Below, in pieces: positions 38,477-63,015 of a stretch of 64,000 nt of DNA. The notes under the pieces are model-generated. The model was not told the origin of the DNA and searched no databases. It was given only the letters and a program-made list of their open reading frames with translations. The DNA is taken from contig CAWBGT010000001.1 of NCBI GenBank assembly GCA_963788375.1, positions 7,467 through 71,466 on the forward strand. The letters are read 5' to 3'. This stretch comes from an uncultured Chloroflexia bacterium. GTDB lineage: Bacteria; Chloroflexota; Limnocylindria; Limnocylindrales; CSP1-4. Position 1 is the stretch's first letter. Every line of letters begins with the position of its first letter. A program made the position numbers and the translations under genes.

Positions 38477-38489
38477 TGGGGCCTCCTGC

Positions 38490-39377: not shown

Positions 39378-39644
39378 GGGTGGCACCGGGGTTCTCTGGG
39401 GCGGGCCCGGCAATCCGGGTCGCGGGGGAAGGACGAGGGAGGCGCCGCCGCCGCCCATTCGCGGGACCCGATCGGGAGGCCCGGTGCGTGACCGGGCGGG
39501 GCCTCGGGGTCGGGGAACGCTCGAGCGCGGACGTCGCGGGGCGTGCCTGGGATGGGCGGCGTTAGCGCCGCCGTGGACACGCGCAGGAGAACCCGAAGGA
39601 CGCCATGGCTCAACGATGCCGCTGATGGGGCCGCGCGTCAACCG

Positions 39645-45619: not shown

Positions 45620-45684
45620 TCGATCCCCACCGGGGCGTCGCCGGTCCATTTGACGTGCCGGTGGCGTCCCCGGATGCTCGTCCC

Positions 45685-46431: not shown

Positions 46432-47573
46432 GCCTGCGGGCGCGCCTGGCGTTCGTGATGGCACTCGTGGCGTTGCTGACCGCGGCGGCGGTTGCCGTCG
46501 CAGCCCCGACCATCGTTGGCCGGGGGTTTGCCGCCGCGCTCGGTGATGACTCCGCCATCCGCCCAGGCGGTCCGGGCCCCGGCGGCGGCATGGGCAACGG
46601 GGCTGGCGCGGGAGCAGGCCTGGGCCAGGGCGTCATGCACTGGCAACAGGTCCAGCAGGACACGATCGTCACCCTGATCGCGGTCGCGGTTCTCGCGGCC
46701 GTGGTGGCCTCGCTCGTGGGCCTGTTCCTGGCCACGCGCACGGTGCGGCCGCTCGGACGGCTCGAGGCGGCTGCCGCGGCCGTGGCCAGGGGCGATCTCG
46801 AAGCCAGGTCAGGGTTGGCGGACCGGACCGACGAGATCGGGTCACTGGCGCGCTCGTTCGACGGGATGGCGGCGGGCCTCCAGGCGACAGAGGTCTCGCG
46901 CCGCCGCTTCTTCGCCGACGCAGCCCACGAGCTCAAGACCCCGATCGCCGTCATCGACGCCACGACGTCGGCGGTCATCGATCGCGTGTACACGCACGAC
47001 GACCGTCACCTCGAGACCATCAGGGAGCAGGCGCGGCTCCTCGGCCGCATCGTCGACGATCTGCGCACCGTGTCCCTGGCCGAGGCCGGGTCGCTGCCGT
47101 TGCGGATCGAGGCCGTCCCGCTGGCACCAGTGCTGGATGCGGTAGCCCGCGGCGCGGCGGCGCGGTCGTCACCTGGGGGACCGCGCGTCGAGGCCATCGA
47201 CCCTGGCGCGCTCGCTGTCCGCGCCGACTCCGACCGGTTGCGCCAGGTCCTCAACGCGTTGACCGACAACGCCCTGCGCCACGCCGCGGCCGGCGGATGG
47301 GTGCGGATCTCGGCGACCGGCGTGCCGCCGGCCCCGCCAGGCCAGGTCCGGATCACCGTCGTCGACTCCGGCCCCGGGATCGCCCCCAACGACCTGCCGC
47401 ATGTCTTCGATCGCTTCTACCAGGCCGACCCATCCCGCGACCGATCGACCGGGACGAGCGGTCTCGGCCTCGCGATCGTGCGCGCGATCGTCGAGGCGCT
47501 CCACGGTTCGGTGACGGCTGCCAACGAACCCGGGGCCGGGGCCCGATTCGACGTGGATCTGCCCTCAGCCTGA
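46428..47573 (+). CDS. sensor histidine kinase (HAMP + HisKA + HATPase_c)
   Basis: GTG start overlapping the response-regulator stop (GTGA). Two TM segments, H-box FFADAAHELKTPIA, and N/G boxes DNALRHA and DSGPGI...GLGLAIV. Confidence 0.85.
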   Translation: MSLRARLAFVMALVALLTAAAVAVAAPTIVGRGFAAALGDDSAIRPGGPGPGGGMGNGAGAGAGLGQGVMHWQQVQQDTIVTLIAVAVLAAVVASLVGLFLATRTVRPLGRLEAAAAAVARGDLEARSGLADRTDEIGSLARSFDGMAAGLQATEVSRRRFFADAAHELKTPIAVIDATTSAVIDRVYTHDDRHLETIREQARLLGRIVDDLRTVSLAEAGSLPLRIEAVPLAPVLDAVARGAAARSSPGGPRVEAIDPGALAVRADSDRLRQVLNALTDNALRHAAAGGWVRISATGVPPAPPGQVRITVVDSGPGIAPNDLPHVFDRFYQADPSRDRSTGTSGLGLAIVRAIVEALHGSVTAANEPGAGARFDVDLPSA

Positions 47574-47850: not shown

Positions 47851-48234
47851 GTGTACGACCCCGTTGGTGAGATCGATCTGATCCAGATCGGCCTCATCCG
47901 GGCGCTCGCCGGGACGCACCGCCTGCGGATCGTCCACCTCCTGGGCCGCGGATCCCTCGAGGTGCGCGAGCTCGCCCGCGAGCTCGACCTTCCCCAGGCC
48001 ACGGTCTCCCAGAACCTGGCTGCCATGCGGGCGGCAGGTCTCGTGGATGCGACGCGAGAGGGCCGCGCGGTCCGCTACCGCCTCGCCGATCCGGAGATTC
48101 TCGCCGCCTGCGACCTCATGCGGAACGTGATCGTCCGCCGCCTTTCAGCGCTCGGCAACCTCGCCGCCGCAGCCGGTGACGGGCAGCCGGCGATCTCCAG
48201 GAACCAACTTCCGGCACAGGTGACCAATCGATGA
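47851..48234 (+). CDS. ArsR/SmtB-family transcriptional regulator
   Basis: GTG start with AGGAGG RBS. HTH segment LRIVHLLGRGSLEVRELARELDLPQATVSQNLAAMRAAGLV. Confidence 0.8.
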   Translation: MYDPVGEIDLIQIGLIRALAGTHRLRIVHLLGRGSLEVRELARELDLPQATVSQNLAAMRAAGLVDATREGRAVRYRLADPEILAACDLMRNVIVRRLSALGNLAAAAGDGQPAISRNQLPAQVTNR

Positions 48235-48638
48235 GCGACAGCCTCAATCTCGTCATGTTCTCCGGCACGGCCGACAAGCTGCACGCAGCGGCGACGCTGG
48301 CCGCCGGGGCGGCCGCGATGGACCGGCCGGTGAACGTCCTGCTCCAGTACTGGGCGCTGGACGCGTTCCGGTCTGATCGGCTGGACGTGAACCACGGCCT
48401 CGCCTGGGACGCCATGGCCGACGGCGCGAGCCGCCCGGTCAAGGGCACGGCGGCCATTCCCTGGCTGGACACCTTCCGGATGGCCAAGGAGCTCGGATCG
48501 GTCTCGATCCTGGCCTGCTCCGGGTCGCTGGATGTCCTGGGCATCGACGTCACCGCCCTCGATCCGATCGTCGATTCGTCGGGCGGGATCGCCGTCTTCC
48601 TGCTGGCCGCCGAAGACGGCCAGCTCGTCTTCATCTAG
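48231..48638 (+). CDS. DsrE/DsrF-like sulfur-relay family protein (lacks obvious active-site Cys context)
   Basis: ATGA overlap with arsR. 135 aa with a DsrE-like fold; single Cys in LACSGSLD. Confidence 0.6.
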   Translation: MSDSLNLVMFSGTADKLHAAATLAAGAAAMDRPVNVLLQYWALDAFRSDRLDVNHGLAWDAMADGASRPVKGTAAIPWLDTFRMAKELGSVSILACSGSLDVLGIDVTALDPIVDSSGGIAVFLLAAEDGQLVFI

Positions 48639-48666: not shown

Positions 48667-49035
48667 ATGGCCGATCACGAGAAGCTCGTATTCATGGTGA
48701 CGCACGGGCCCGACCATCCCGAGCACGCCACCCTTCCCTTCGTGATGGCCGCCGCCGCGCTGGCATCGGATGTCGCCGTGACGATGGGCTTTCAGGCCGA
48801 TGCCGTGAGGCTCATGACGACCGGGGTGGCCGAAACGGTCGCCGCACCCGGCTTCCCGCCCCTGGCCAAGCTCGTCGCCGACGTCCGCGAGCTGGGCGGC
48901 CTGCTCCTCGTCTGCAACCCGTGCCTCAAGAGTCGGGACATCGCGCCCGACGACCTCGTCGCCGGTGCCGAGGTGGTCGCCGCAGGCCGCTTCGTCGCCG
49001 AGATCACGTCCGCCACCAACTCTCTCGTGTACTAG
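48667..49035 (+). CDS. DsrE-family sulfurtransferase-like protein
   Basis: AAGGAGG RBS. VFMVTHGPDHPEHATLPFVMAAAA and LLVCNPCLKSR, with Cys in the position of the DsrE sulfur-carrier cysteine. Confidence 0.7.
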   Translation: MADHEKLVFMVTHGPDHPEHATLPFVMAAAALASDVAVTMGFQADAVRLMTTGVAETVAAPGFPPLAKLVADVRELGGLLLVCNPCLKSRDIAPDDLVAGAEVVAAGRFVAEITSATNSLVY

Positions 49036-49047
49036 GAGACCGCTGAA

Positions 49048-49308
49048 ATGACCGCAACCGTTGCCGAGCTCGAGGCCATCGAGGCCGCCGAGATCATCGA
49101 TGCCCGCGGCGCAGCCTGCCCGGGCCCGCTGCTCGAGGCCAAGAAGGGCATGTCCGGGGTCCCCGTGGGCTCCGTGATCGAGATCTGGTCCACCGACCCG
49201 GGCACCAAGAGCGACATCTCGGCCTGGTCCGGCAAGGTCGGCCACGACTTCATGGGCACGCTCGAGGCCGACGGCTACGACCGCGTGTTCGTCACCCGCC
49301 GCAAGTAG
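49048..49308 (+). CDS. tusA: TusA-like sulfur carrier protein
   Basis: IDARGAACPGPLLEAKKGM carries the CPxP motif of the TusA/SirA family; 86 aa. Confidence 0.8.
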   Translation: MTATVAELEAIEAAEIIDARGAACPGPLLEAKKGMSGVPVGSVIEIWSTDPGTKSDISAWSGKVGHDFMGTLEADGYDRVFVTRRK

Positions 49309-49386: not shown

Positions 49387-49836
49387 ATGACCGCACCCAT
49401 CGCGACCGAACCGCATGCACCGGGCGAATCCTTCGTCCCGCGGATCCTCGTGTTCTCCACGAACAACATCTCCGATCCCGGCATCGACCTCGCCGGCAGC
49501 GCCCACATGCACTACTCGCCGGGCGTGAACGTCATCGGCCTGCCGTGCACAAGCGGCATCCGGCCGTCATGGATCCTGCACGCGCTGGAGTCCGGCTTCG
49601 ACGGGGTGTTCGTGGCATCCGACGGGGACGAGTGCGCCTACCTGCCAGACTGCGCCAAGCGCTCCAGCCGGATCATGGCGGAGGCGCAGAAGCAGCTCAA
49701 GGAGAAGGGCCTCACGGCCAACCGGCTGCGCATGGCCGCGATCTGCTCGGTCTGCTCGGAGCCGTTCACCAAGCATGTCCAGGGGTTCTCGGAAGCGTTG
49801 CGCGCGATGGGCCCGGCGAAGGCGGAATCACGATGA
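49387..49836 (+). CDS. MvhD/FlpD-like hydrogenase iron-sulfur (2Fe-2S) subunit homolog
   Basis: ILVFSTNN...VIGLPCTSGIRPSWILHALESGFDGVFVASDGDECAYLPDC matches the MvhD family. ATGA overlap with the next gene. Confidence 0.7.
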   Translation: MTAPIATEPHAPGESFVPRILVFSTNNISDPGIDLAGSAHMHYSPGVNVIGLPCTSGIRPSWILHALESGFDGVFVASDGDECAYLPDCAKRSSRIMAEAQKQLKEKGLTANRLRMAAICSVCSEPFTKHVQGFSEALRAMGPAKAESR

Positions 49837-52601
49837 CCGACAGCTGCGCCACCCGCGACGAGGCCCCGGCCGCCACGGACTACGACGTCCTGGTCGTGGG
49901 TTCGGGCATCGGCGGCATGGAGTCCGCCCTCAAGCTCGGCGACATGGGCTACAAGGTCCTGCTGGTCGAGAAGGAGGCCAGTGTCGGCGGCAAGATGATC
50001 CTGCTGTCGAAGGTCTTCCCGACGCTCGACTGCGCGTCCTGCATCTCGACGCCCAAGATGGCGTCGACGATCCACCACCCCAACATCACGGCCATGACCT
50101 ACGGCCGGGTGGACCAGATCCGGACCGCGGCCGACGGCACCTTCAAGGCCAAGGTCACCCAGAAGGCCCGATTCGTCGACATCGACTCCTGCACCGGCTG
50201 CCAGAAGTGCGAGACCGCGTGCACGGTCGCGGTGCCGGACCAGTTCAACGCGGATCTGGTGGCCCGCCGGGCGGCCCACATCACGTTCCCCCAGGCCGTG
50301 CCCAAGAAGGCGGTCATCGACCGCGCCGGAAGCTCGCCCTGCTCGTTCGCATGCCCGGCCGGGATCCAGGCCCACGGCTACGTCAGCCTGATCCGCAGCG
50401 GCCTCGACGAGGAGGCCTACCGGCTGGTGCTGGACGCCACCCCGTTCGTGGGCACGCTCGGGCGCGCCTGCTACGCCCCGTGCGAGGTCGACTGCACCCG
50501 CGGCTCGCTGGAGGGCACGCTCCCGATCCGGCGCCTCAAGCGCTACGCCTCCGACGTGCACGACGCCAGCGGCGCGGACAACGGCATCGAGCGGCCGCAG
50601 GCCAACGGCCGGCGTGTTGCCATCGTGGGCTCCGGGCCCACCGGGCTCACCGCCGCCTGGCAGCTGGGCCGCCTGGGCTACGCGGTCAAGGTGTTCGAGG
50701 CGGCCCCGGTCGCCGGCGGCTTCCTGCGCCTGGGCATCCCGTCCTACCGGCTGCCCGAGGCCGTGGTGGAGCGCGACATCGAGAACGTCACCGCGCTCGG
50801 CGTGGAGATCGTGACCGGCTCGCCGGTCGCCGACCCCGCGGCGCTCAAGGACAACGGCTTCGACGCCGTGCTGGTCGCCATCGGCACCCATCGCTCGACC
50901 TCCCTGGGCGTCCCGGGCGAGGACCGGCTGGGCGTCCTGGGCGGAACCGACTTCCTTCGCCGGGTGAAGCTCGATGAGGCACCCGCGCTCGCAGGCAAGC
51001 GCGTGATCGTCGTGGGTGGCGGCAACGTGGCGATGGACGCCGCGCGCACGGCCCGGCGCCTGGGCGCGGAGTCGGTCACCGTGGCCTACCGCCGGAGCCG
51101 CGACGAGATGCCGGCCCACCACGTCGAAGCCGCGGATGCGGAGAGGGAGGGCGTCGCCTTCCGGCTCCTGGTCGCCCCGGCAGAGGTCCTGGGCGATGCG
51201 AACGGGGCGGTCTCCGGCCTGCGCTGCCAGGAGATGCGCCTGGGCGCGCCGGACGCGTCCGGCCGCCGCTCGGCCGAGCCCGTCCCGGGCTCCGACACGA
51301 CCATCCCGGCCGACGTGATCATTGCCGCTATCGGCATGCGCCCGGACACGAGCGCGTTCGGCGACCGGGTCGCGGTCCATCCCAACGGCCGGCTGGTCAG
51401 CGACAAGGCCTCCTGCCAGACCGCGACGCCGCACGTGTTCGCCGCCGGCGACGCGGTGCACGGACCCACCGACATCACGCGGGCGGTGGGGGAGGGCCGC
51501 AAGGCCGCCCACCAGATCGACGCCTGGCTCTCGGGCCGCGAGTTCGATGACTGGGACACGCGCCTCCCCGTCGTGGACAAGGAGCAGGTGCTGGCCCGCC
51601 AGAAGGCATACACGGTCTCGGCGCCCACGCCCGAGGGCTCCGAACTCGTGGCGGCCCCCGCGGACTTCCGGGAGGTGGAGGCCGGGCTCACGCAGCAGGA
51701 GGCCCGCCGGGCCGCCGGCCGGTGCATCGACTGCGCGGTGTGCTCCGAGTGCAACGAGTGCGTCTCGGCCTGTCCCGTCGATGGCTGCATCGACCTGCGG
51801 GCCCGCGACGAGGAGAGGGAGATCAAGGTCGGCGCCGTCGTGGTCTCGACCGGCTTCAAGCTGTTCCCCGCGGACCTCAAGCCCGAGTACGGGTACGGCC
51901 TGTACAAGAACGTCATCACCGGCATGCAGATGGACCGGCTCCTCGCTCCGACGCGGCCGTTCAACACGATCCTGCGCCCGGGCGACGGCAAGGTCCCCGA
52001 GCGGATCGCGTACATCCTGTGCACCGGGTCCCGCGACGAGACCGTGGGCAATCCCCTCTGCTCCCGGTTCTGCTGCATGTACTCCATCAAGCAGAACCAG
52101 CTCCTGATGGGCGCCCTGCCCCTGGCCGACATCACCGTCCACTACATGGACATCCGCGCGCCGGGCAAACGCTACGACGAGTTCTACGAGCAGGCGAAGG
52201 GCATGGGCGCGACCTACGTCAAGGGCCGGGTTGCGGACGTGACCGAGACGCCCGACGGGGACCTGATCCTCAAGTACGAGGACATCGAGAACGGTGGCGC
52301 CATCACCGAGGCCGAGTACGACCTGGTGGTGCTGGCGGTGGGCGTGCTGCCCAATCGCGACGCCGAGCGGCTGTTCGAGGTGGGCGAGCTCGCCCTGGAT
52401 GAATGGCAGTATGTGGCCGAGCCGGAGGAAGACGTGAACCCGGGCCAGACGAACATCCCCGGGGTCTACGTGGCCGGTGCCGCGTCGGGTGCCAAGGACA
52501 TCGCGGACTCCATCCTCCACGCAGGCGCCGCCGTGGCCCAGGTCGCGGCCCACCTCGAGCGGACGAAGCCCGTGCCGCAGATCGAGCTGGTGCCGGCATG
52601 A
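49833..52601 (+). CDS. HdrA-like flavoprotein with inserted GltD/NfnB-like NAD(P)H-binding Fe-S domain (HdrL-type fusion)
   Basis: 922 aa. N-terminal FAD motif DVLVVGSGIGGMESA; 4Fe-4S motif CTGCQKCETAC; inserted GltD-like block with CSFACPAGIQ, ACYAPCEVDC, VAIVGSGPTGLTAA and VIVVGGGNVAMD; ferredoxin CIDCAVCSECNECVSACP; HdrA motifs CTGSRDE...CSRFCCMYS and GVYVAGAASG. Confidence 0.8.
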   Translation: MTDSCATRDEAPAATDYDVLVVGSGIGGMESALKLGDMGYKVLLVEKEASVGGKMILLSKVFPTLDCASCISTPKMASTIHHPNITAMTYGRVDQIRTAADGTFKAKVTQKARFVDIDSCTGCQKCETACTVAVPDQFNADLVARRAAHITFPQAVPKKAVIDRAGSSPCSFACPAGIQAHGYVSLIRSGLDEEAYRLVLDATPFVGTLGRACYAPCEVDCTRGSLEGTLPIRRLKRYASDVHDASGADNGIERPQANGRRVAIVGSGPTGLTAAWQLGRLGYAVKVFEAAPVAGGFLRLGIPSYRLPEAVVERDIENVTALGVEIVTGSPVADPAALKDNGFDAVLVAIGTHRSTSLGVPGEDRLGVLGGTDFLRRVKLDEAPALAGKRVIVVGGGNVAMDAARTARRLGAESVTVAYRRSRDEMPAHHVEAADAEREGVAFRLLVAPAEVLGDANGAVSGLRCQEMRLGAPDASGRRSAEPVPGSDTTIPADVIIAAIGMRPDTSAFGDRVAVHPNGRLVSDKASCQTATPHVFAAGDAVHGPTDITRAVGEGRKAAHQIDAWLSGREFDDWDTRLPVVDKEQVLARQKAYTVSAPTPEGSELVAAPADFREVEAGLTQQEARRAAGRCIDCAVCSECNECVSACPVDGCIDLRARDEEREIKVGAVVVSTGFKLFPADLKPEYGYGLYKNVITGMQMDRLLAPTRPFNTILRPGDGKVPERIAYILCTGSRDETVGNPLCSRFCCMYSIKQNQLLMGALPLADITVHYMDIRAPGKRYDEFYEQAKGMGATYVKGRVADVTETPDGDLILKYEDIENGGAITEAEYDLVVLAVGVLPNRDAERLFEVGELALDEWQYVAEPEEDVNPGQTNIPGVYVAGAASGAKDIADSILHAGAAVAQVAAHLERTKPVPQIELVPA

Positions 52602-54376
52602 GCGAGCAGACCCAGGACCTTGCCATGGGCCAGCCAGCCCCCGAGGCCGAGTCCGGCCGCCGGATCGGCGTGTATGTCTGCCACTGCGGCGGCAACATCT
52701 CCGACTACGTCGACGTCGAGAAGGTCATCGACGACATCAAGGACAACGGTGACGTCGTGGTCGCCAAGACCGCGATGTTCACCTGCTCGGACGCCACCCA
52801 GTCCGAGATCGTCGCGGACATCCAGGCCAACGAGCTCGATGGCCTCGTGGTGGCCTCCTGCTCGCCCAAGCTGCACACCTACACCTTCCGGGGCGTGGCC
52901 CAGCGGGCCGGCCTCAACCCGTACGAGTACACCCAGGTCAACATCCGGGAGCAGTGCTCCTGGGTCCACACGGACGACCACGACGGAGCGACCGCCAAGG
53001 CCACCGCGCTCGTGGAGGCCGGCATCGGACGGACGCGCCACACGGTGCCCCTGGAGCCGATGGTCGTGGAGACCCTCCCCCACACGCTCATCATCGGCGG
53101 CGGGATCGCCGGTCTCCGGGCGGCCGTCGGGCTGGCCGACATCGGCCTCAAGGTGACGCTCGTCGAGCGTGAGCTGGAGCTGGGTGGACGCGTCGGCCGG
53201 CTGGGGGCGATGTACCCCCACAACCGGAAGGGCTCGGAGCTGATCGCCCACCTGGTGGCCGAGGTGCGCAAGCGCCCGGCGATCACGGTCCTCACGGGCG
53301 CGGAGCTGGTCGCCAAGGCCGGCAGCTTTGGCAACTACCGGGTGAGCCTCCAGATCGGCGGGGAGGGTGCCGGCACCATTGAGGTGGCCGTGGGCTCCAT
53401 CGTCGTGGCCACGGGCTTCGACGACTACCGCCCCGAGGAGGGCGAGCTGGGCTACGGCATCGAAGGTGTCGTCACCCTGACCGAGTTCAAGGAGGTCGTG
53501 GATGGCTCAACCGACGGGCTTGCCTGGAACGGCCGGCCGGTTCGCAGCGTGGCCTACGTGTACTGCGTCGGCAGCCGCAACACGGCCGGATGCGCCAACG
53601 CGTACTGCTCGCGGTACTGCTGCGCCGCCACCGTCCAGACGGCCGTCGAGGTCTCGGGCCTCGACCCGTCCATCCGCCAGTTCCACCTGTACCGGGACAT
53701 GCGGACGTACGGCAAGTTCGAGCCGCTGTACACGGAGGCGCGCAAGTCCGGCTCGGTCTTCCTCAAGTTCGACAACGAGGAGCCGCCTGCGGTCGCGAAG
53801 GGCCCCGACGGAACGCTGACGGTCACCGTCCGCGACGTGCTCACCGAGCGCATCGAGATGGCGATCCCGGTGGACCTCGTGGTCCTGGTCACGGCCATGG
53901 TCCCGCGGGCCAACCAGGGCCTCGTGGACGTCCTCAAGCTCCCGGCCGGCAGCGATGGGTTCTTCAACGAGATCCATCCCAAGCTGCGACCCGTGGAGAC
54001 GGTGGTGGATGGGGTGCTGATCGCCGGCGCCTGCCAGGGTCCCAAGACGTCGGGCGAGAGCGTCATGTCCGGCCTGGCCGCCGTGACCCAGAGCGCCGCG
54101 GTCCTCAAGAAGGGTTACACGGAGCTCGACCCGCTGGTCGCGATCGTGGAGCCGGAGGCATGCACCGCCTGCGGCGACTGCCTCACAGCGTGCCCCTATG
54201 ACGCGATCTCCATGGCCGAGGAGGCTGACCGGCACTTCGCGGTCATCAGCCCCACCGGCTGCAAGGGCTGCGGCGGCTGCGTGCCGATCTGTCCGGAGAA
54301 CGCGATCGACCTGCTCGGCTATACCGACGCCCAGATCACGTCGATGATCGAAAGCCTCGTGGAGGTTCCTGTCTGA
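52598..54376 (+). CDS. hdrA: heterodisulfide reductase subunit A-like flavoprotein
   Basis: 592 aa. N-terminal cluster IGVYVCHCGGNI; FAD motif LIIGGGIAGLRAA; VYCVGSRN...CSRYCC; C-terminal 2x[4Fe-4S] CTACGDCLTACP and CKGCGGCVPICP. ATGA overlap upstream, TGATG overlap downstream. Confidence 0.85.
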   Translation: MSEQTQDLAMGQPAPEAESGRRIGVYVCHCGGNISDYVDVEKVIDDIKDNGDVVVAKTAMFTCSDATQSEIVADIQANELDGLVVASCSPKLHTYTFRGVAQRAGLNPYEYTQVNIREQCSWVHTDDHDGATAKATALVEAGIGRTRHTVPLEPMVVETLPHTLIIGGGIAGLRAAVGLADIGLKVTLVERELELGGRVGRLGAMYPHNRKGSELIAHLVAEVRKRPAITVLTGAELVAKAGSFGNYRVSLQIGGEGAGTIEVAVGSIVVATGFDDYRPEEGELGYGIEGVVTLTEFKEVVDGSTDGLAWNGRPVRSVAYVYCVGSRNTAGCANAYCSRYCCAATVQTAVEVSGLDPSIRQFHLYRDMRTYGKFEPLYTEARKSGSVFLKFDNEEPPAVAKGPDGTLTVTVRDVLTERIEMAIPVDLVVLVTAMVPRANQGLVDVLKLPAGSDGFFNEIHPKLRPVETVVDGVLIAGACQGPKTSGESVMSGLAAVTQSAAVLKKGYTELDPLVAIVEPEACTACGDCLTACPYDAISMAEEADRHFAVISPTGCKGCGGCVPICPENAIDLLGYTDAQITSMIESLVEVPV

Positions 54377-54621
54377 TGCCTGACCTGTCCCGGGACCCGC
54401 GCGAGGTCATGCGGGAGGAGCCCGTGATGCGGCCCCGCATCCTCGCCGCCCTCCAGGCCGGTCCCCTCACCGTTCCCGAGATTGCCACGGCCGTTGGCTC
54501 GCCCACTCACGAGGTCCTGTTCTGGGTCATGGGCATGCGCCGCTACGGGTGGCTCGAGGAGATCAAGGGCAACGCCCCCGACGGCTACTTCCAGTACCAG
54601 CCCACCGGGCGGGAGTCCTGA
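54376..54621 (+). CDS. small winged-helix-like protein embedded in the hdr operon
   Basis: 81-aa ORF overlapping both neighbours by 1 bp; ILAALQAGPLTVPEIATAVGSPTHEVLFWVMGMRRYGWLEE is wHTH-like. Confidence 0.4.
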   Translation: MPDLSRDPREVMREEPVMRPRILAALQAGPLTVPEIATAVGSPTHEVLFWVMGMRRYGWLEEIKGNAPDGYFQYQPTGRES

Positions 54622-55844
54622 TGACCGCCACCACCGCTCCTGCCGACGCCGCGCCGGCCGTCGCCACGCCCGCCCGCCTGGACCTGGGCCTCTACCCGGA
54701 TCTCCAGCGGTTTGGCGCCACCGACATCAGCGCCTGCTTCTCGTGCGGCACCTGCTCCGCGACCTGCCCCATGTCCCAGACCGACGGAACCTTCCCCAGG
54801 CGGATCATCCGCTATGCCCAGCTGGGCATGAAGGACGCGCTGCTCGGGTCCAAGGAGCTGTGGGCGTGCTACCAGTGTGGTGAGTGTGCCGAGACGTGTC
54901 CCACCCAGGCCGATCCGTCCGAGTTCATGGCGGCGACCCGACGCTATGCCATCGCCTCCTACGACCGGACGCGGCTGGCCCGGACCCTCTACACGAACCC
55001 GGTCATGGCGACCGTGATCGCCGTCCTCGTGGCCGTGCTGTTCGCCGCCTTCATGTACTCGGCCCGCGGCCCGATGAGCACAGAGACCCTGGCGATCTTC
55101 GAGTGGATCCCGTCGGAGCTGATCCACGACACCGGGATCGTCGTGATGATCGTGGTCGTGCTCGCGGGCGTGCTGGGCATCGCGACCATGGCCCGGGATG
55201 TCGGACGCCGTGAGGGCGAGAGTCCGCGGAGCGTGTTCGGGTCCAGGGCCGCACTCGGCCGGACCGGGCGTGCATTGTGGAGCGCCATCGGCCGCGAGTC
55301 GCTGGGCCAGGTCCGGTTCCGCGAGGAGTGCGAGGCGGACGACGTCGCCATGGCCGTCCCCTGGTACCGCCGCCGCTGGCTGGTCCACGCGCTCGTCGTC
55401 TGGGGCTTCCTCGGCCTGCTGGCGGCAACCGGGCTGGACTACGGCCTGGCGCTGCTCGGCATCAAGGAGACCGGGGCGCCGGTGCCGATCTGGTACCCGG
55501 TCAGGCTGCTGGGCACCGTGGCCGGGGCCGTCCTCGTCTATGGGGCCACCGTCCTGATCATCGACCGCCGCAACGCCGCCAGCCGCAGCGTCAGGACCTC
55601 GACGACGGCCGACTGGATGCTCCTGGGCCTGCTGTGGGTGACGGCCGTCACCGGTTTCGCCATCGAGCTCGCGCTGTACCTGCCGAGCGCCCCCGCCTGG
55701 GGCTACTGGCTGTTCCTCGTCCACGTCGCCGTCGCCATGGAGCTCGTGCTCCTCGCGCCGTTCACCAAGCTCGCCCACGCGGTCTACCGGCCGGTGGCGA
55801 TGTTCTTCGTCGCTCTATCGCGCCAGCCAACGGAAGGAGCCTGA
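54621..55844 (+). CDS. HdrC-like 2x[4Fe-4S] ferredoxin domain fused to a NarI/HdrE-like polytopic membrane (putative b-type cytochrome) domain
   Basis: CFSCGTCSATCP and CYQCGECAETCP about 45 aa apart, then 5-6 TM helices containing conserved His (WLVHALVVWGF, LFLVHVAVAMEL, KLAHAVY). Confidence 0.7.
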   Translation: MTATTAPADAAPAVATPARLDLGLYPDLQRFGATDISACFSCGTCSATCPMSQTDGTFPRRIIRYAQLGMKDALLGSKELWACYQCGECAETCPTQADPSEFMAATRRYAIASYDRTRLARTLYTNPVMATVIAVLVAVLFAAFMYSARGPMSTETLAIFEWIPSELIHDTGIVVMIVVVLAGVLGIATMARDVGRREGESPRSVFGSRAALGRTGRALWSAIGRESLGQVRFREECEADDVAMAVPWYRRRWLVHALVVWGFLGLLAATGLDYGLALLGIKETGAPVPIWYPVRLLGTVAGAVLVYGATVLIIDRRNAASRSVRTSTTADWMLLGLLWVTAVTGFAIELALYLPSAPAWGYWLFLVHVAVAMELVLLAPFTKLAHAVYRPVAMFFVALSRQPTEGA

Positions 55845-55847
55845 GCC

Positions 55848-56339
55848 ATGACCAGCCCCACGCTGCCGCAGACGGCCCATGTCCACCACGAGCGCCTGCT
55901 CGAGCGGGTGAACCGCATCCCCGACATCGCGGATGCGCTGCTCACGACCTCGCCCGACGTTGCCCAGGCCAGCCTCCGCGACCTGCGCGGGTTCCTCGAG
56001 GGGACGCTGCTCCCGCACATGGAGGCCGCCGAGCGGGCCCTCTACCCGGAGCTGGAGCGCATGTTCCAGAACCGGCATTCCATGGCACCCATGCGCCGCG
56101 AGCACGCCCGCATCCGGGAGCTGATCACGGAGTTCGGTGCGCTCGTGGACGAGGGTGAGGGTCACGTGACCCTGGCCCGCACCCTCTCGATCCGGCGCGT
56201 GCTGTTCCACCTGTACGCGCTGCTCAAGGTGCACCTGGCCGAGGAGGATGCCTACCTCCGGATCATCGAGCACGGCGTCACCGACGACGTCGCGGACGCG
56301 GTCAAGGCGGCGCTCGAGCACCCGGTCGCGGGCGTCTAG
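55848..56339 (+). CDS. hemerythrin-like HHE cation-binding domain protein
   Basis: H/E residues spaced in a four-helix pattern (HHERL...HMEAAERALYPEL...MRREHARI...LKVHLAEED). Confidence 0.65.
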   Translation: MTSPTLPQTAHVHHERLLERVNRIPDIADALLTTSPDVAQASLRDLRGFLEGTLLPHMEAAERALYPELERMFQNRHSMAPMRREHARIRELITEFGALVDEGEGHVTLARTLSIRRVLFHLYALLKVHLAEEDAYLRIIEHGVTDDVADAVKAALEHPVAGV

Positions 56340-56354
56340 GGCTAGCATGGGCGG

Positions 56355-56879
56355 GTGAACATCCAGCACCCGGACCCGGAGACCGTCCCCGTCTCGTTGC
56401 GGGCGACCGGCGACGTCCACCATGCCCGGCTGATGCCCCACGTGGACCGGCTGCTGACGCTCGCCGAGATGGTCGGGCGGGTGGAATGCGCGGCCCTCCA
56501 TGCGCTCTACAACGACGAGTACGCATTCATCGCGGGCCAGCTGATCCCGCACCTGGAGGTGGTCGAAGCCACGCTCTATGACCGTCTCGAGACGCTCATG
56601 GGCCCCCGCCACACCATGGCCCCCATGCGCGAGGAGCACGACACCGTGCGCCGGCTCGTGGCTGAGCTGGGCACGTACCAGGTCCACGAGAACGAGTGCA
56701 CGTGGAACGAGATGGAGGGTCTCGCCCTCCGGCGATCGCTCTACCGGCTGCACGCCCTGCTCAAGGTCCACCTTGCGGAGGAGGAGCAGTACCTGGCGGT
56801 CCTGGACCGGAGCCTGACGGAGGACGAGAAGGAAGGGCTGGCGCGCGGCCTCGAACACGCCATGGCAGAGGGCGAGTAG
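56355..56879 (+). CDS. hemerythrin-like HHE cation-binding domain protein (paralog of 55848..56339)
   Basis: Aligns with the preceding gene: HLEVVEATLYDRLE...MREEHDTVRRL...LLKVHLAEEEQYL. Confidence 0.65.
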   Translation: MNIQHPDPETVPVSLRATGDVHHARLMPHVDRLLTLAEMVGRVECAALHALYNDEYAFIAGQLIPHLEVVEATLYDRLETLMGPRHTMAPMREEHDTVRRLVAELGTYQVHENECTWNEMEGLALRRSLYRLHALLKVHLAEEEQYLAVLDRSLTEDEKEGLARGLEHAMAEGE

Positions 56880-57716: not shown

Positions 57717-58076
57717 ATGAACTTTACTGAATGGATCATGGCGATGATCGTCTTCTTCTTCTGGGTGATGGCGATCTGGATCTTCATCTCCATCTTCATG
57801 GACATCTTCCGCCGGAACGACATGAAGGGCGGCATGAAGGCGCTGTGGATCCTGGTGATCTTTATCATCCCGTTCCTGGGCTGCCTGATCTACATCATCG
57901 CCCGGCCCAAGGTCACGGCCCAGGACGTCCAGATGATGACGCAGGCCGAGGCCGCCGCCGGTGCGGCGTCGCAGGTGTCCACCGCGGACGAGCTCGCGAA
58001 GCTCGGCCAGCTGAAGGACTCCGGCGCCATCACCGTCCCCGAGTACGAGGCCCTCAAGGCCAAGCTGATGGCCTGA
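57717..58076 (+). CDS. PLDc_N (cardiolipin synthase N-terminal-like) membrane domain + SHOCT domain protein
   Basis: Two TM helices (IMAMIVFFFWVMAIWIFISIF, LWILVIFIIPFLGCLIYIIARP), then DELAKLGQLKDSGAITVPEYEALKAKL, which is a SHOCT motif. Lower GC than the surroundings. Confidence 0.75.
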   Translation: MNFTEWIMAMIVFFFWVMAIWIFISIFMDIFRRNDMKGGMKALWILVIFIIPFLGCLIYIIARPKVTAQDVQMMTQAEAAAGAASQVSTADELAKLGQLKDSGAITVPEYEALKAKLMA

Positions 58077-58160: not shown

Positions 58161-59066
58161 TCAGGGGTGGCGCTGTCCTGGCACGCGCCCCTCGGCCGCC
58201 GCGACCAGCTGGGCCAGGTGCGATGCCTCGTGGCGGGCGAAGTACGCCGCCTGGGACAGCACCGTCACGCGACCCCACTCCGGGTGGCAACCAGCTCGGC
58301 CCCAGTCCGCGTCGTCGAGGGCGGCGAGGCGATCGACGGCGGCATGCCGGAGCTCCCGGATCCTGTGGGCGAGGGCCGTGGCCGCCTCTCCGGTCGCCGT
58401 CGTCCCCTCGTCGGACGCGGGTGTGTCGGCCCAGACGGCCGCCGCAGCGAGATCGGGCTCCGTCTCGGTGAGGAGGCGGTGGATCCGCATGGCCAGGAGC
58501 TCCTCGGTGAACAGCAAGTGCTCCAGGGTCTGGGTGGCGGACCAGGCGCCGGCGACCGGCGCACGGCGGAGCTCGGCATCCGCACGATCCGCGAGTGCCG
58601 CGTCGAGGTGACGCGGACCGGCGGCGAGGGCGGCGAGGATCGCGCCACGGTCGGCAGGCTCCAGGTACCAGACGGGCAGCTCCTCGTGGAAGGAGATCGC
58701 CGGAGCCTCGCACGTCGGGCAGGCGGGTGGCACGGCATCGCCGACGAAGACGTCGCCGCACACACGACAGACGCGTGCCCGCGGAGCGTCGTCGAGCGAG
58801 ATCGTCCGGCCCGCCCTGACGGCCGGCCCAACCTCCCGCAGGTAGGGGATGGTCGCGGGCGGGAGGTCTCCACCAAGATCCTCGACGAGCGACTCGACGG
58901 CCGCAGCCGCCGCTTCGCCGCCGGCCGGTGACTCCTCCTCCGCGAAGCGGACCAGCTCGCGCTGGAGCGCGACCCGTACCAGCTTCGCGCCGTTGTAGGC
59001 GCCCTCGCGCTCCAGTCCCCGGGCCACCGCGGCCAGCCGGCCGATCCGTTCCAGCCGTGCGTCCAT
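58161..59066 (-). CDS. rubredoxin-like zinc-ribbon + DinB_2 (DinB/YfiT-like) domain protein
   Basis: Internal start MDARLERIG at codon 133 of ORF 58161..59462, with AGGAGG RBS. CRVCGDVF...CPTCEAP zinc ribbon. The C-terminal half has the DinB-like four-helix pattern with His (WSATQTLEHLLFTEELLAMRIHRLL...ARHEASHLAQL). Confidence 0.55.
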   Translation of the reverse strand: MDARLERIGRLAAVARGLEREGAYNGAKLVRVALQRELVRFAEEESPAGGEAAAAAVESLVEDLGGDLPPATIPYLREVGPAVRAGRTISLDDAPRARVCRVCGDVFVGDAVPPACPTCEAPAISFHEELPVWYLEPADRGAILAALAAGPRHLDAALADRADAELRRAPVAGAWSATQTLEHLLFTEELLAMRIHRLLTETEPDLAAAAVWADTPASDEGTTATGEAATALAHRIRELRHAAVDRLAALDDADWGRAGCHPEWGRVTVLSQAAYFARHEASHLAQLVAAAEGRVPGQRHP

Positions 59067-59313
59067 CCCATGCCTCCTGCCCGCACCTGATCGCCTCGCC
59101 GGCGCCCGCCCTGTGGTTGTTCCGGTCACCGCCCAGTGTGCGCCACCGGCAGGCCTCCCACCCGCCGCGCCGCGAGTTGCCGGGCCGATCCTCGCCACGG
59201 TTGGGCCGGCCTGCAGGAGAACGCCTGGTTCACGGCTTGTGATTCGCGACGCTCGCGCCATGACGGCAGCGCGGAGTAATGTTGAGGCTGCGTCCGGCCC
59301 GGGAGGATCCGCC

Positions 59314-62300
59314 ATGGCTGCGCCGCGTGCCCCGCGCTCCCCGTCTGCTGTATCGGCGCTCGTCTCGATGCTTGTCGTGCTGGTGCTGCTCGCGCCGGGC
59401 ACCGCGTCGGCAGCCGTGCCGGCCGGCGACGCCCCGGTGATCACGGGGCCGGCGGACGGCACTCCGGTGATCGTGGAGCCGCAGCTCTCCTGGCTGCCCG
59501 TTGCCGGCGCTGGCCACTACGCGGTCCAGGTCGCGGCCGATGCCACGTTTGCCGACCCGGTGTACGACGTCGTCACCGACGCCACGGCCGCGACGCCGGA
59601 GGTCGACCTCGAGCCCGGGACGTGGCACTGGCGCGTGGCCGTCGACGAGGGCACGGTTCGAGGGCCGTGGGCGGCATCCACGTTCGTCAATGCGGCATCC
59701 CTCGTCGCCCCGATCCAGCTGGCACCGGCCGATGGAGCGGCCTTCGAGCACCCCGCGGTTCCGGTCCTCGCCTGGACGCCCGTGGACGGGGCGGCCTCAT
59801 ACGAGGTGCAGCTCGCCGACAACCCTGCCCTCGCCGATCCGTTCCCCGCGGTGACCCGAACCACGTCCCTGGTCGCCGCCTTCGCGGCGCCGGGCGTGTC
59901 GTATGCCTGGCGGGTGCGGGCCGTGGCCCGCAACGGCACGACGGCTGGCCCCTGGTCCGCCGTCCGCTCCTTCACCGCGACGTGGGCCGGCGTGCCGACC
60001 GGTCTCGAGCCCGCGAACGGTGCCGCGGTGCGCGACATCGAGCTCGGGTGGGACCCGATGCCCGGGGCAGCCGGTTATGACGTCCAGGTGACGCCGGGCC
60101 AGGACCCGGACTGGGCGGCCGCGGCCACCCGCTCGTACGCCACGATCGCCACCCGCTTCCTCGTCGAGGACCCCGTGGTCCCGGCCGCTTCGACCCTTGT
60201 CTGGCGCGTTCGCGCCGTGACCGGGGACCCGGCGGATCCCCCCGGGCCATGGACCGCGCCTCGCCTCGTGACCCGGGCGATGAGCTCTCCGCCCGTGCCG
60301 CTCGCGCCCGCCAGCGGGTCGGTGACGGGCGAGGTGGTGACCCTGGTATGGACTCCCGCCGTCCGCGCCTCACACTACGAGGTGCAGGTCGCCCCGGACC
60401 CCGACTTCGCGACCGGCGTGGCCACCTACACCACCACGGAGCCCGGTCTGGACGTTACGACAGGCGAGCAGTTCGCCCCGTACGTGCTGGTCAAGGGGGC
60501 CACGTACCACTGGCGCGTCCGCGGAGTCGACACCGACACCGTCCACCTGCCGGGCCTGCCCGCCAGTGGCTGGTCGACGGTGCGGAGCTTCACCTGGGAT
60601 CCGCCGGTCACGGCGCTGCTGGCCCCTGCCGACGGGGAGACCATTCCCGTGCCCACGCTCGCGTGGGAGCCGGGCGCCGCCCGAGTCGTCCGGGTGACCG
60701 TCGAGGACGCGGCAGGCGGCATCGTGGCCCGGAGGGTCACCTGGGCCACCACGTTCACGCCCGAGGCTGCTCTCGACCCGGCCGACGGCCCGTTCACCTG
60801 GTACGTCGAGCGAGTCGCCCTGCCGGGTGGTGCTTCCGATACCGTCGCCTGGCGGTCGGCGGAGCGTTCGTTCTCCCTTTCGCCGGTCGCTGCCACGGCG
60901 TCCGCGCCCGACCCGGTCGGCCCAGCCGACGGCAGCCACTCCATCGGGACGCCGACGCTCTCCTGGACCCCGGTGGCCGGCGCAGACCACTACCGCGTCT
61001 ACCGCGGGCTGCCGGCCGAGCTGCCGGATCCGCTCCCAAGCGCCTGGAGCCCGGACCTCGCCTTCCCCGCGTGGACGTATCCGAACGGTGACCTGGACGC
61101 GCACCTGCACTCGTGGGTGGTCCTCGCATTCGACGCCGCGGACCAGGTGATCGCACGCGGCGCGTCCTCGACCTTCGTCCTCGACCGGCTGCCCGCCCCC
61201 CTGGTCACGTCGCCCGTCGACTGCGTGGACGCCGGCTGCGCGGTCTACGCCGACACGCCACGCCTGGCCTGGGATCCCGTTCCCGGCGCGACCGGCTACG
61301 CGGTGGACTACCGGGGAACGGGTGGCGCCAGCCTGGGCATCGGGACCACGAGCACCAGCGTCCTGCCGACCGTCGACATCCTGGGCCCCGTGTCCGGCGA
61401 GCCCGAGGGATCGGCCGAATGGGGTGTCGCTGCGTGCGTCGAGCAGCGCTGCAGCATCGGTGCCCCGCACCGCTTCCTGCTCTCCCTGCCGGCCCCCGTG
61501 ATGATCGCCCCCGCCGCCGGCGCGGTCGTGGACGGGCCGCAGGTGACCCTGGACTGGCAGGATCTCCTCCAGGCGCCGGCCGGGCCGGGCACGATCGGCA
61601 CGCCCCAGACCGAGGCCTTCGCCTACAACCCGGCCCTGATCGGCTCGCCCGAGAACGGGACCGCCAGCCAGCTCGGGGGTGCCCCGACTCGCACCTGGGT
61701 GCTGCCTCCCGGCACGTGGATCTGGGAGCTCTGGGGTCATGCCGGGAGCGGGCGACAGACCGCCCACGCCTTCCGATCCATGGCCATCGACTGGGCAGGA
61801 CCTGCTCCGCTCGCGCCCGCCGCCGGCACCATCGTCGCCCGCGCGCCGCTGCTCGCCTGGGCGCCGGCCGCCTTCGCCGATCTGTACGAGGTCGAGGTCT
61901 TCTCCGGGACCACCACCGGCCCCGCGGCACGGGTGGTTCAGGCGACCACGGGCGAGGCGGCGTGCGCCCCGTTCGAGGAGCTTGCGGCGGGCGCCTACAC
62001 CTGGCGCGTGCGGTCGACGCTCAAGGGCATCGCATCCTCGTGGGGCGCTCCGGCCACGTTCACGATCGCGCCGCTGACGTCGCCGGTGCTGCTGGAGCCG
62101 GCCCCCGAGGAGGCCTCCGCCACCGGGCTCCTGCGGTTTGCATGGGAGCCAGTTGCCCGCGCGACCGCCTACCGCCTGCTGGTGGACGATGACGCGTCGT
62201 TCCGCAGTCCGCGGGAGTCCGTGGTCACGGGCCAGCCCCGGTGGGTGCCGCTCGCGGCATATCCGTCCGGCTCCTGGTCGTGGCGCGTGCAGGCGCTGGG

Positions 62301-63015
62301 GCCGTCCGGCGCTGTGCTTGCCACCTCGTCCGCGCGGCGGGTGGTGGTGGATCTGGTCGTGCCCGTCGTGACCGCACCAGTGGAGTCGATTGCCCGGGCC
62401 CGTGCCTCGGCCACTGCCGCCGTGCCGGTCGACCTCCTCTGGGAGGGCAGCGACACGCAGGCCGGCGAGGTGCGCTACGACGTGCGCCGCTCGGTGGACG
62501 GCGGGCCGTTCGCGGCCTGGGCCACCGGCGTCACGCGGCCGGCGGCACGCTCGACCCTTCCGTCCGGGCACAGCTTCCGGTTTGCCGTCCAGGCCGTCGA
62601 TGCCGCCGGCCACCGCTCGGCGTGGGCCTACGGCCGCACGTTCCGTGTCCGGGCCCACGGGGACGGCGCGTCCGTGGTGACGTACCGCGGCATCTGGCGT
62701 ATCGCGCGGGGCAGCCGCTTCATCGGCGGATCCGCCCACTGGTCAACGGCGGCCGGCACACGCGCCACGTTCAAGTTCTCGGGTCGGGGGGTGGCCTGGA
62801 TCGCCGCCGTTGGACCCGGGCGAGGCAAGGCGCGGGTGTACCTGGACGGCCGGCTCGCAACGACGGTCGACCTGCACGCCGCCGCCTCGGGGACGCGCCG
62901 GATCGTGTTCACGCGGTCCTGGGCTGCGGCCGGCAGCCACTCGATCCGCGTCGAGGTCGTCGGCACGCCCAAGCATGCCCGCGTGGACGTCGACGGGTTC
63001 GTCACGATCCGCTGA
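59314..63015 (+). CDS. giant secreted protein with about 10 FN3/Ig-like about 100-aa repeats and a C-terminal putative carbohydrate-binding domain shared with the 9546..11390 protein
   Basis: ATG at 59314 with GGGAGGA RBS. Signal peptide MAAPRAPRSPSAVSALVSMLVVLVLLAPGTASA. Repeat pattern P.DG......L.W.PV.GA..Y.VQ......F. The C-terminal 120 aa are similar to the other secreted giant. Confidence 0.75.
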   Translation: MAAPRAPRSPSAVSALVSMLVVLVLLAPGTASAAVPAGDAPVITGPADGTPVIVEPQLSWLPVAGAGHYAVQVAADATFADPVYDVVTDATAATPEVDLEPGTWHWRVAVDEGTVRGPWAASTFVNAASLVAPIQLAPADGAAFEHPAVPVLAWTPVDGAASYEVQLADNPALADPFPAVTRTTSLVAAFAAPGVSYAWRVRAVARNGTTAGPWSAVRSFTATWAGVPTGLEPANGAAVRDIELGWDPMPGAAGYDVQVTPGQDPDWAAAATRSYATIATRFLVEDPVVPAASTLVWRVRAVTGDPADPPGPWTAPRLVTRAMSSPPVPLAPASGSVTGEVVTLVWTPAVRASHYEVQVAPDPDFATGVATYTTTEPGLDVTTGEQFAPYVLVKGATYHWRVRGVDTDTVHLPGLPASGWSTVRSFTWDPPVTALLAPADGETIPVPTLAWEPGAARVVRVTVEDAAGGIVARRVTWATTFTPEAALDPADGPFTWYVERVALPGGASDTVAWRSAERSFSLSPVAATASAPDPVGPADGSHSIGTPTLSWTPVAGADHYRVYRGLPAELPDPLPSAWSPDLAFPAWTYPNGDLDAHLHSWVVLAFDAADQVIARGASSTFVLDRLPAPLVTSPVDCVDAGCAVYADTPRLAWDPVPGATGYAVDYRGTGGASLGIGTTSTSVLPTVDILGPVSGEPEGSAEWGVAACVEQRCSIGAPHRFLLSLPAPVMIAPAAGAVVDGPQVTLDWQDLLQAPAGPGTIGTPQTEAFAYNPALIGSPENGTASQLGGAPTRTWVLPPGTWIWELWGHAGSGRQTAHAFRSMAIDWAGPAPLAPAAGTIVARAPLLAWAPAAFADLYEVEVFSGTTTGPAARVVQATTGEAACAPFEELAAGAYTWRVRSTLKGIASSWGAPATFTIAPLTSPVLLEPAPEEASATGLLRFAWEPVARATAYRLLVDDDASFRSPRESVVTGQPRWVPLAAYPSGSWSWRVQALGPSGAVLATSSARRVVVDLVVPVVTAPVESIARARASATAAVPVDLLWEGSDTQAGEVRYDVRRSVDGGPFAAWATGVTRPAARSTLPSGHSFRFAVQAVDAAGHRSAWAYGRTFRVRAHGDGASVVTYRGIWRIARGSRFIGGSAHWSTAAGTRATFKFSGRGVAWIAAVGPGRGKARVYLDGRLATTVDLHAAASGTRRIVFTRSWAAAGSHSIRVEVVGTPKHARVDVDGFVTIR

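Follow-up and report, generated by a model that had tools for sequence, protein, structure and literature searches.

The gene at 54621-55844 on the forward strand of the 64,000-nucleotide stretch analysed here, hereafter the window (uncultured Chloroflexia bacterium from soil, GenBank assembly GCA_963788375.1, contig CAWBGT010000001.1), encodes a protein of 407 residues that joins an HdrC-like iron-sulfur domain to a NarI/HdrE-like cytochrome b membrane domain. We consider it likely that this protein is a QmoC-type membrane subunit of a Qmo-like complex, distinct from the canonical QmoC that is linked to adenosine 5'-phosphosulfate (APS) reductase. The architecture is long known and widespread; the TusA-linked clade is a little-studied Qmo-like variant. 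The gene and its parts are as follows.

54621-55844, +: QmoC-like gene, HdrC-like 2x[4Fe-4S] domain followed by a six-transmembrane (TM) NarI/HdrE-like cytochrome b (open reading frame, NCBIfam qmoC, AlphaFold2 model, Foldseek)
54690-54965, +: ferredoxin-like (HdrC-like) domain, residues 24-115 (Pfam, HdrC structure matches, Cys conservation)
54735-54770, +: cluster motif 1, C39 to P50 (sequence)
54867-54902, +: cluster motif 2, C83 to P94 (sequence)
54999-55823, +: membrane domain, residues 127-401, six TM helices, insert and C-terminal amphipathic helix (AlphaFold2, hydropathy, Lys+Arg distribution, NarI/EtfD matches)
55125-55127, +: codon of H169, where TM2 begins on the periplasmic side; candidate for a fourth heme ligand or for a residue of a quinol site
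55386-55388, +: codon of H256, predicted axial ligand of the proximal (cytoplasmic-side) heme b (aligned to EtfD His78)
55566-55568, +: codon of R316, predicted heme-propionate partner (invariant in the membrane-domain alignment, aligned to EtfD Arg137)
55722-55724, +: codon of H368, equivalent of NarI H187, a distal-heme ligand (aligned to NarI H187 and EtfD H223)
55776-55778, +: codon of H386, predicted second axial ligand of the proximal heme b (aligned to NarI H205 and EtfD His241)

The open reading frame (ORF) is complete, with its stop codon at 55842-55844, and its GC content at third codon positions (GC3, 0.86) is typical for genes of this window of about 70% GC. The ATG at 54621 and the stop codon TGA of the 81-residue ORF before it have one base in common (TGATG), and GGGAG lies about 10 nt 5' of this ATG. 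Database homologs of 400-410 residues align over 95-100% of the protein, which argues that the start is correct and that the two-domain protein is no assembly artefact; an assembly or frameshift artefact fusing two genes is ruled out by more than 1,600 full-length homologs of about 400 residues from independent assemblies. A promoter and terminator scan of 47.4-57.4 kb returned no promoter-like site and one terminator-like site, inside the ORF, which is under shuffle expectation. The AlphaFold2 model of the protein has a pLDDT of 91.2 and a pTM of 0.90. Unless another alignment is named, conservation of its residues was counted over 55 aligned full-length homologs, whose identity to the query is 24-51%.

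The two cluster motifs, read from the sequence, are C39-x2-C42-x2-C45-x3-C49-P50 and C83-x2-C86-x2-C89-x3-C93-P94. They agree exactly with the two HdrC-spaced CxxCxxCxxxCP motifs noted in an earlier sequence-only reading of this gene, and all eight cysteines are invariant (55/55). Pfam Fer4_8/Fer4_17 match residues 36-97. The best solved-structure matches of the N-terminal domain are the HdrC chains 8rvv_C and 5odc_C (E 3e-13 to 6e-13), and a Foldseek search of the PDB likewise returned HdrC (5odc_C and 8rvu_c, probability 1.0). The domain is nevertheless not a member of the HdrC family as modelled, since only model positions 2-77 of 144 align and the score is 63.8 bits against a cutoff of 160. 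The same sequence-only reading described the membrane helices as standing in place of CCG domains; this was misframed, because HdrC itself has no CCG domain. Pfam/NCBIfam scans found no HdrB-type CCG domain in any protein of the operon. Together, these results predict an N-terminal domain that holds two [4Fe-4S] clusters.

In the AlphaFold2 model the membrane domain consists of six TM helices (TM1 127-147, TM2 165-198, TM3 252-278, TM4 293-317, TM5 329-351 and TM6 358-377), with which Kyte-Doolittle hydropathy is consistent, a cytoplasmic helical insert (residues 202-245) and a C-terminal helix (383-401). The insert, which is missing from NarI, carries a further conserved cysteine, C237 (55329-55331), found in 51 of the 55 homologs within the motif QxRFxxC. 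Lys and Arg residues number 9, 2 and 3 (14 in total) in the predicted cytoplasmic loops against 1, 1 and 0 (2 in total) in the outward loops; family averages agree, and the protein holds no twin-arginine (Tat) motif. Because the charge distribution is positive-inside and this motif is absent, the iron-sulfur domain is placed in the cytoplasm, and not in the periplasm as would have spoken against the earlier proposal.

The fold of this domain was supported by several comparisons. The Pfam family Nitrate_red_gam (PF02665) matched with 27.4 bits, above its gathering threshold of 22.9. When a profile of the membrane domain only was searched, EtfD (E 1.4e-3) and NarI (E 2.4e-3 to 3.6e-3) were recovered and no other meaningful solved relatives; the matches of the profile search included 1y5l, the H66Y mutant of NarI. 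An hhalign comparison with NarI, whose sequence was reconstructed in part from printed alignments, gave a probability of 83% and an E-value of 9e-6 over NarI residues 77-213. With Foldseek, the membrane domain matched NarI (1y5i_C) over 206 aligned columns and mycobacterial EtfD (9ojn) over 273, each with probability 1.0. The five or six TM helices with conserved His that had been proposed as NarI/HdrE-like are six, and three histidines of the membrane domain, H256, H368 and H386, are invariant (55/55 each), a conservation far above what chance would give. K383, R390 and D331 are also invariant in the homolog alignment.

In the cryo-EM structure of EtfD, His78 and His241 ligate a single heme b, Arg137 binds its propionate, and the heme lies about 7 Å from a cubane [4Fe-4S] cluster and 4-5 Å from menaquinone (PMC13083937). 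Since H256, H386 and R316 align to these three residues, a proximal, cytoplasmic-side heme b site is a well-supported prediction for the QmoC-like protein. The assignment of H256 as a ligand rests on the EtfD alignment because the NarI alignments stop short of NarI TM2: none of those made with phmmer, hmmsearch and hhalign extended into that helix, which holds H56 and H66. These two residues are the TM2 His pair of NarI. Its helix equivalent in the QmoC-like protein carries one His only (H256), so that this pair is not reproduced. The His pair of the last NarI helix (H187/H205) is present in full as H368/H386, with an identical spacing of 18 residues and a motif, PF(T/S)(K/R)LxH, common to both proteins. 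By alignment, the His pattern is therefore three of the four diheme ligands of NarI, and the expectation that the TM histidines would align with diheme ligands was borne out to that extent. A second, distal heme may be bound at H368.

The full-length match to the NCBIfam model qmoC (NF038018) was the best family match of the protein (positions 2-360 of 360, E 2.2e-62), and all 55 family representatives match this model (best E 3.5e-126). The scores of individually scanned proteins are bimodal: 186-219 bits were obtained for the query, for P0187 and for five relatives encoded in metagenome loci, and 318-409 for canonical proteins. As canonical QmoC representatives we used P0225, P0235, P0255 and P0269, which are 28-30% identical to the query by phmmer and about 25-28% in the multiple alignment. 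Two clade-specific positions differ between the groups: the query has H169 and Q227, and the canonical proteins have Glu or Gln at 169 in three of four cases (the fourth is ambiguously aligned) and His at 227 in all four. The protein shares with canonical QmoC the two-motif HdrC-like N-terminal domain and the six-TM HdrE/NarI-like cytochrome b domain; the two flavoprotein neighbours are present in modified form, as mvhD, hdrL and hdrA directly upstream. Among the ORFs annotated at 35.9-64 kb no AprA/AprB, Sat or Dsr family was found, so a linkage to APS reductase is not seen there. On sequence grounds, the protein belongs to a sister clade of canonical QmoC and is not canonical itself.

QmoC has been described as a fusion of an HdrE-like cytochrome b with an HdrC-like iron-sulfur domain; quinols can reduce its two hemes b, and the HdrA-like subunits QmoA and QmoB are purified together with it (PMC3333476, citing Pires et al. 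2003). The sequence-only reading had called the fusion unusual, which does not hold: the same fusion defines QmoC (Pires 2003; Ramos 2012; PMC3333476) and recurs in TcuB, and an exhaustive homolog search returned 3,095 clusters (50% identity) at E<=1e-3, of which 190 reach E<=1e-30; the majority are full-length matches. Source databases label members of the clade "4Fe-4S dicluster domain-containing protein" or "ferredoxin". No description of a TusA-linked Qmo-like cluster was found in the openly searchable literature, a search that left subscription papers outside.

The QmoC-like gene is the ninth of eleven in a tightly packed, same-strand cluster whose other members are listed below. Five junctions of the cluster are start/stop overlaps of one or four bases, and such overlaps couple mvhD, hdrL, hdrA, the 81-residue gene and the QmoC-like gene translationally.

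47851-48234, +: ArsR-family regulator, first gene of the cluster (Pfam HTH_5, E 6.6e-13)
48231-48638, +: DsrE_2-like protein (Pfam DrsE_2, E 3.4e-10; C96 in 41/42)
48667-49035, +: DsrE-family protein with a conserved CxxC (Pfam DsrE, E 1.7e-13; C84 in 32/33, C87 in 30/33)
49048-49308, +: TusA sulfur carrier (Pfam TusA, E 2.5e-17; C24 in 56/56)
49387-49836, +: MvhD/FlpD-like [2Fe-2S] protein (Pfam FlpD, E 5.5e-28; conserved Cys residues)
49833-52601, +: HdrL, 922 residues, flavoprotein of HdrA type into which an NfnB/GltD-like NAD(P)H module is inserted (Pfam, NCBIfam, structure matches)
52598-54376, +: HdrA-like flavoprotein, 592 residues (NCBIfam HdrA2, E 9e-141)
54376-54621, +: Cys-free winged-helix protein, 81 residues (one-base overlaps on both sides; AlphaFold2 pLDDT 89)
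55848-56339, +: hemerythrin HHE protein 1 (Pfam Hemerythrin, E 3.6e-12; 3-nt gap after the QmoC-like stop)
56355-56879, +: hemerythrin HHE protein 2 (Pfam Hemerythrin, 25.0 bits, just below the cutoff of 25.3)

The partner flavoproteins have HdrA/HdrA2 models as their best matches. HdrL, a type defined in Desulfobacterium autotrophicum (PMC2702500), matches solved chains of NfnA/NfnB type over residues 163-639 and HdrA over residues 628-905, and its NfnB/GltD module appears to be placed within the "inserted ferredoxin" region of HdrA. A longer ORF for HdrL starting at a GTG at 49545 was rejected in favour of the start at 49833, where an ATGA overlaps the mvhD stop. The smaller HdrA aligns to residues 7-243 and 324-656 of M. 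marburgensis HdrA; because the residues between 243 and 324 are unaligned, it is without the inserted ferredoxin domain of methanogen HdrA.

A comparison of related loci, 38 of them in GTDB species genomes and 80 in metagenomes, was made, and neighbours were counted in 51 non-redundant loci with at least 6.5 kb 5' of the QmoC-like gene. Genes for TusA, MvhD and HdrA lie upstream of it in 51/51, down to 31% identity. The 81-residue gene is present in 48 of these loci and a DsrE-type gene within 7 kb in 42. HdrL is encoded in 39 (24/25 at >=70% identity, 3/12 at 30-50%), and in the distant locus L088 its place is taken by a 425-residue QmoA-like flavoprotein with two ferredoxin motifs. Hemerythrin genes follow on the 3' side in all 25 loci of at least 70% identity and are absent from distant versions of the cluster. 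The hosts are metagenome-assembled genomes (MAGs) of Chloroflexota (Limnocylindrales and "uncultured Chloroflexia"), one Nanopelagicales MAG (Actinomycetota) and MAGs of Bacillota/Clostridia; no cultured host was found, the cluster look-up giving MAG or metagenome members only. At the protein level the window shares 93% identity with OY970218.1. The source given for one family member, P0135 (39% identity), is a MAG of a "Candidatus Kariarchaeaceae archaeon", and for this reason the clade may reach into the Archaea.

The analysis establishes the domain architecture, the conserved ligands, the topology, the homology to QmoC, NarI and EtfD and the conserved gene order; complex formation, the number of hemes, quinone reactivity, the direction of electron flow and the sulfur substrate are inferred. 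From these data we propose a model in which the membrane anchor would wire the HdrA/HdrL/MvhD flavoprotein module to the quinone pool. Electrons would pass between a quinone site and the Fe-S/FAD centres of HdrA/HdrL by way of the heme(s) b and the two [4Fe-4S] clusters, with MvhD as an internal [2Fe-2S] connector. Electron transfer from NAD(P)H to menaquinone is strongly exergonic; since HdrL would add a NAD(P)H site, flow toward the quinone pool is favoured, in which electrons would run from NAD(P)H through HdrL/HdrA and the clusters and heme b of the QmoC-like protein to menaquinone. Such wiring, which the sequence-only reading had already put forward, matches by analogy the presumed role of the homologous QmoC (PMC3333476). 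The flow could further be coupled, by bifurcation or confurcation, to redox chemistry of sulfur carried on TusA/DsrE. Protein-bound sulfur is considered as this third partner because TusA is encoded in every locus and DsrE in most, a gene context that suggests it as the substrate. Our tentative reading of the arrangement tusA-mvhD-(hdrL or qmoA-like)-hdrA-81aa-qmoC(-dsrE), possible rather than probable, is a membrane-bound Qmo-like enzyme whose client would be protein-bound sulfur and not APS reductase. Its substrate may be a TusA/DsrE persulfide or a di- or trisulfide at the CxxC of the DsrE-family protein.

Several findings pull in the other direction. The qmoC score of 211.6 bits lies below the curated cutoff of 300, so that the protein falls outside the equivalog family. 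At the position of NarI H66 stands Leu266, where 41/55 homologs have Leu and 7/55 Met, so that no second ligand of a distal heme is recognisable there; by alignment, EtfD retains the H368 equivalent yet binds one heme (PMC13083937), which makes a second heme in the QmoC-like protein less certain. H169 is not conserved across the family: 36 of the 55 homologs have His at this position, 11 have Glu, 4 Asp and 2 Gln. As a universal fourth heme ligand it is therefore ruled out by the Glu, Asp or Gln found in 17/55 as well as by the canonical proteins; it may be the missing ligand in this clade or, equally, a quinol-site residue. Distant clusters are without the NAD(P)H module, and because HdrL occurs in so few loci at 30-50% identity NAD(P)H is not a core substrate. 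The annotation of the cluster contains no catalytic sulfur or disulfide site (no HdrB/CCG, AprAB or DsrAB). Finally, synteny is the sole ground on which we infer a complex.

An enzyme that merely re-oxidises its flavoproteins in one direction, as TcuB does, deserves the most serious consideration among the alternatives, although we judge it rather unlikely. HdrL/HdrA would then oxidise NAD(P)H and deliver electrons to the quinone pool with no bifurcation and no sulfur substrate, and the TusA/DsrE genes would serve another purpose, for example cofactor sulfur supply or regulation. TcuB models align nearly full length (residues 83-401 to positions 69-378 of 389, E 1e-16), 35 of the 55 family members match them, and the newer Pfam entry PF27541 names the membrane part of some homologs CitB. 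The HdrA encoded here would also suit such an enzyme, since it is without the inserted ferredoxin domain, which Wagner et al. in 2017 reportedly identified as the low-potential branch of methanogen HdrA. TcuB, annotated as an FADH2:quinone oxidoreductase, carries electrons from a cytoplasmic flavoprotein to quinone (PMC10468695). However, the scores are far below the TcuB cutoffs (60.9 against 524 bits and 53.9 against 246.6 bits), which places the protein outside that family, and Pfam/NCBIfam annotation of the cluster found neither tcuA nor tcuC. The retention of TusA and DsrE-type genes with the QmoC-like gene argues for a functional link, and two HdrA-type flavoproteins together with MvhD exceed the needs of a simple dehydrogenase.

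That the protein is instead a genuine QmoC appears very improbable. It would then exchange electrons with menaquinol on one side and AprAB on the other, either in dissimilatory sulfate reduction or in sulfur oxidation by the reverse route, and aprBA and sat would lie elsewhere in the genome. The end-to-end qmoC match would fit, and a type II QmoABC is present in a real sulfate reducer, Ammonifex degensii (PMC10504309). The position of the query in the lower group of the bimodal scores, under the equivalog cutoff, speaks against it, as do the lack of Apr, Sat and Dsr families in the annotated part of the window and the conserved upstream neighbours, which are tusA, mvhD and hdrA and not aprBA. 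The host lineage is seen only as Limnocylindrales and Chloroflexia MAGs, a group that is not known to comprise sulfate reducers. Least probable of all is that the membrane domain serves only to anchor the protein, or to conduct electrons across the membrane to a partner in the periplasm, and is not a quinone-reactive cytochrome b: the quinone-site residues are not confidently assignable and the distal-heme ligand set is incomplete, but no periplasmic redox partner is annotated in the cluster, NarI and EtfD, to which the nearest solved structures belong, both react with quinol or quinone (PMC13083937), and the hemes of QmoC are reducible by quinols (PMC3333476).

Comparison with known systems further delimits the QmoC-type protein favoured here. 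Canonical "type I" QmoC (Desulfovibrio, Archaeoglobus, Chlorobaculum) has the same order of an HdrC-like domain followed by a six-TM HdrE/NarI-like domain. Canonical qmoC follows two genes for HdrA-like flavoproteins and an MvhD module is part of the complex (PMC3333476), likewise here. By contrast, MvhD is a separate protein here and the C-terminus of QmoB there, HdrL replaces QmoA, the 81-residue winged-helix gene and the TusA/DsrE genes are additional, and aprBA/sat are not nearby. According to Neukirchen et al. 2023, type I is the canonical form linked to Sat-AprAB, and type II, in which subunits A and B resemble HdrA more closely, is reported from Ammonifex degensii and Ca. Vulcanisaeta moutnovskia and also from organisms without Dsr or Apr (PMC10504309). 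The QmoC-like protein fits this published account of type II, a likeness by description only, and the searched passages of that paper and its supplements make no mention of TusA beside type II Qmo.

TcuB (CitB) shows the same order of two [4Fe-4S] clusters and a NarI-like membrane domain, and its partner proteins differ. EtfD (Rv0338c family, 9ojn), the best structure match of the membrane-domain profile, combines a NarI-like heme b membrane domain with a cubane [4Fe-4S] cluster as here, but its order is reversed, with the membrane domain first, and it has CCG domains with noncubane or linear clusters where the QmoC-like protein has no CCG. In HdrED and DsrMK the iron-sulfur and membrane parts are separate subunits, whereas they are fused here; HdrF is another version of the design (PMC2702500). 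NarI (1q16_C) shares the fold over about 206 columns, and its D126 and R112 have equivalents in the QmoC-like protein. Unlike NarI, the latter has one extra N-terminal TM helix, a cytoplasmic insert of 50 residues and no H66 equivalent, and its iron-sulfur domain is fused, whereas that of the nitrate reductase is the separate NarH; NarGH is not encoded here.

The fusion itself is the known QmoC design and nothing new, and the function proposed in the sequence-only reading is in essence the one already accepted for QmoC. The value of the finding lies in its context, an unnamed QmoC-like clade that is widely tied to TusA/DsrE and HdrA-type flavoproteins and, here, to a NAD(P)H-binding HdrL, in hosts that are not known for dissimilatory sulfur metabolism. 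For canonical Qmo, confurcation has been proposed. A variant with a soluble donor, NAD(P)H, and small purifiable partners, TusA and DsrE, could ease tests of HdrA-quinone coupling, and recognising the clade would correct the annotation of several thousand proteins. If the client is indeed protein-bound sulfur, sulfane-sulfur turnover would be linked to the quinone pool and here also to NAD(P)H, possibly through bifurcation or confurcation at the membrane, in soil and freshwater hosts that do not reduce sulfate, namely Chloroflexota, Actinomycetota, Bacillota and perhaps certain Archaea.

The remaining members of the cluster gave additional indications. The CxxC of the DsrE-family protein (C84/C87) could form a DsrC-like di- or trisulfide substrate. 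The ArsR-family regulator has a single conserved cysteine, Cys87 (24/24); the persulfide sensors SqrR and BigR carry a Cys pair. This regulator may nonetheless sense sulfur or redox state. Immediately 5' of its gene, at 45655-47573 (+), lie genes for an OmpR-type response regulator and a HAMP histidine kinase, and the same pair also lies upstream in loci L001 and L002. The 81-residue protein matches no Pfam family above cutoff and has 696 homologs, which the sources misname "DprA/Smf" or "MarR"; Foldseek gave generic winged-helix matches only (SmtB, MarR, Z-alpha). A DsrD- or DsrC-like factor was ruled out, there being no such Pfam match and no cysteine, and the protein could be a subunit or a regulator of the complex. 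The downstream hemerythrin pair hints at a link to O2, NO or iron in this lineage.

Outside the cluster, about 9 kb upstream on the opposite strand, 37562-39644 (-) encodes a PALP enzyme (cysteine-synthase-like) and a hexapeptide transferase (serine-acetyltransferase-like), a pair with a possible tie to sulfur assimilation. On the other side, a small PLDc_N + SHOCT membrane protein is encoded at 57717-58076 (+), with a base composition atypical for the genome (0.50, 0.37 and 0.95 GC at the first, second and third codon positions), and a protein of 433 residues with a rubredoxin-like zinc ribbon (RUBY_RBDX) and a C-terminal DinB_2 domain at 58161-59462 (-). The ORF of 1300 residues at 59113-63015 (+) has no Pfam match at E<=1e-5; with its signal-like N-terminus and many repeats of a motif of about 90 residues (W.PV.GA..Y.VQV), it probably encodes a large secreted repeat protein.

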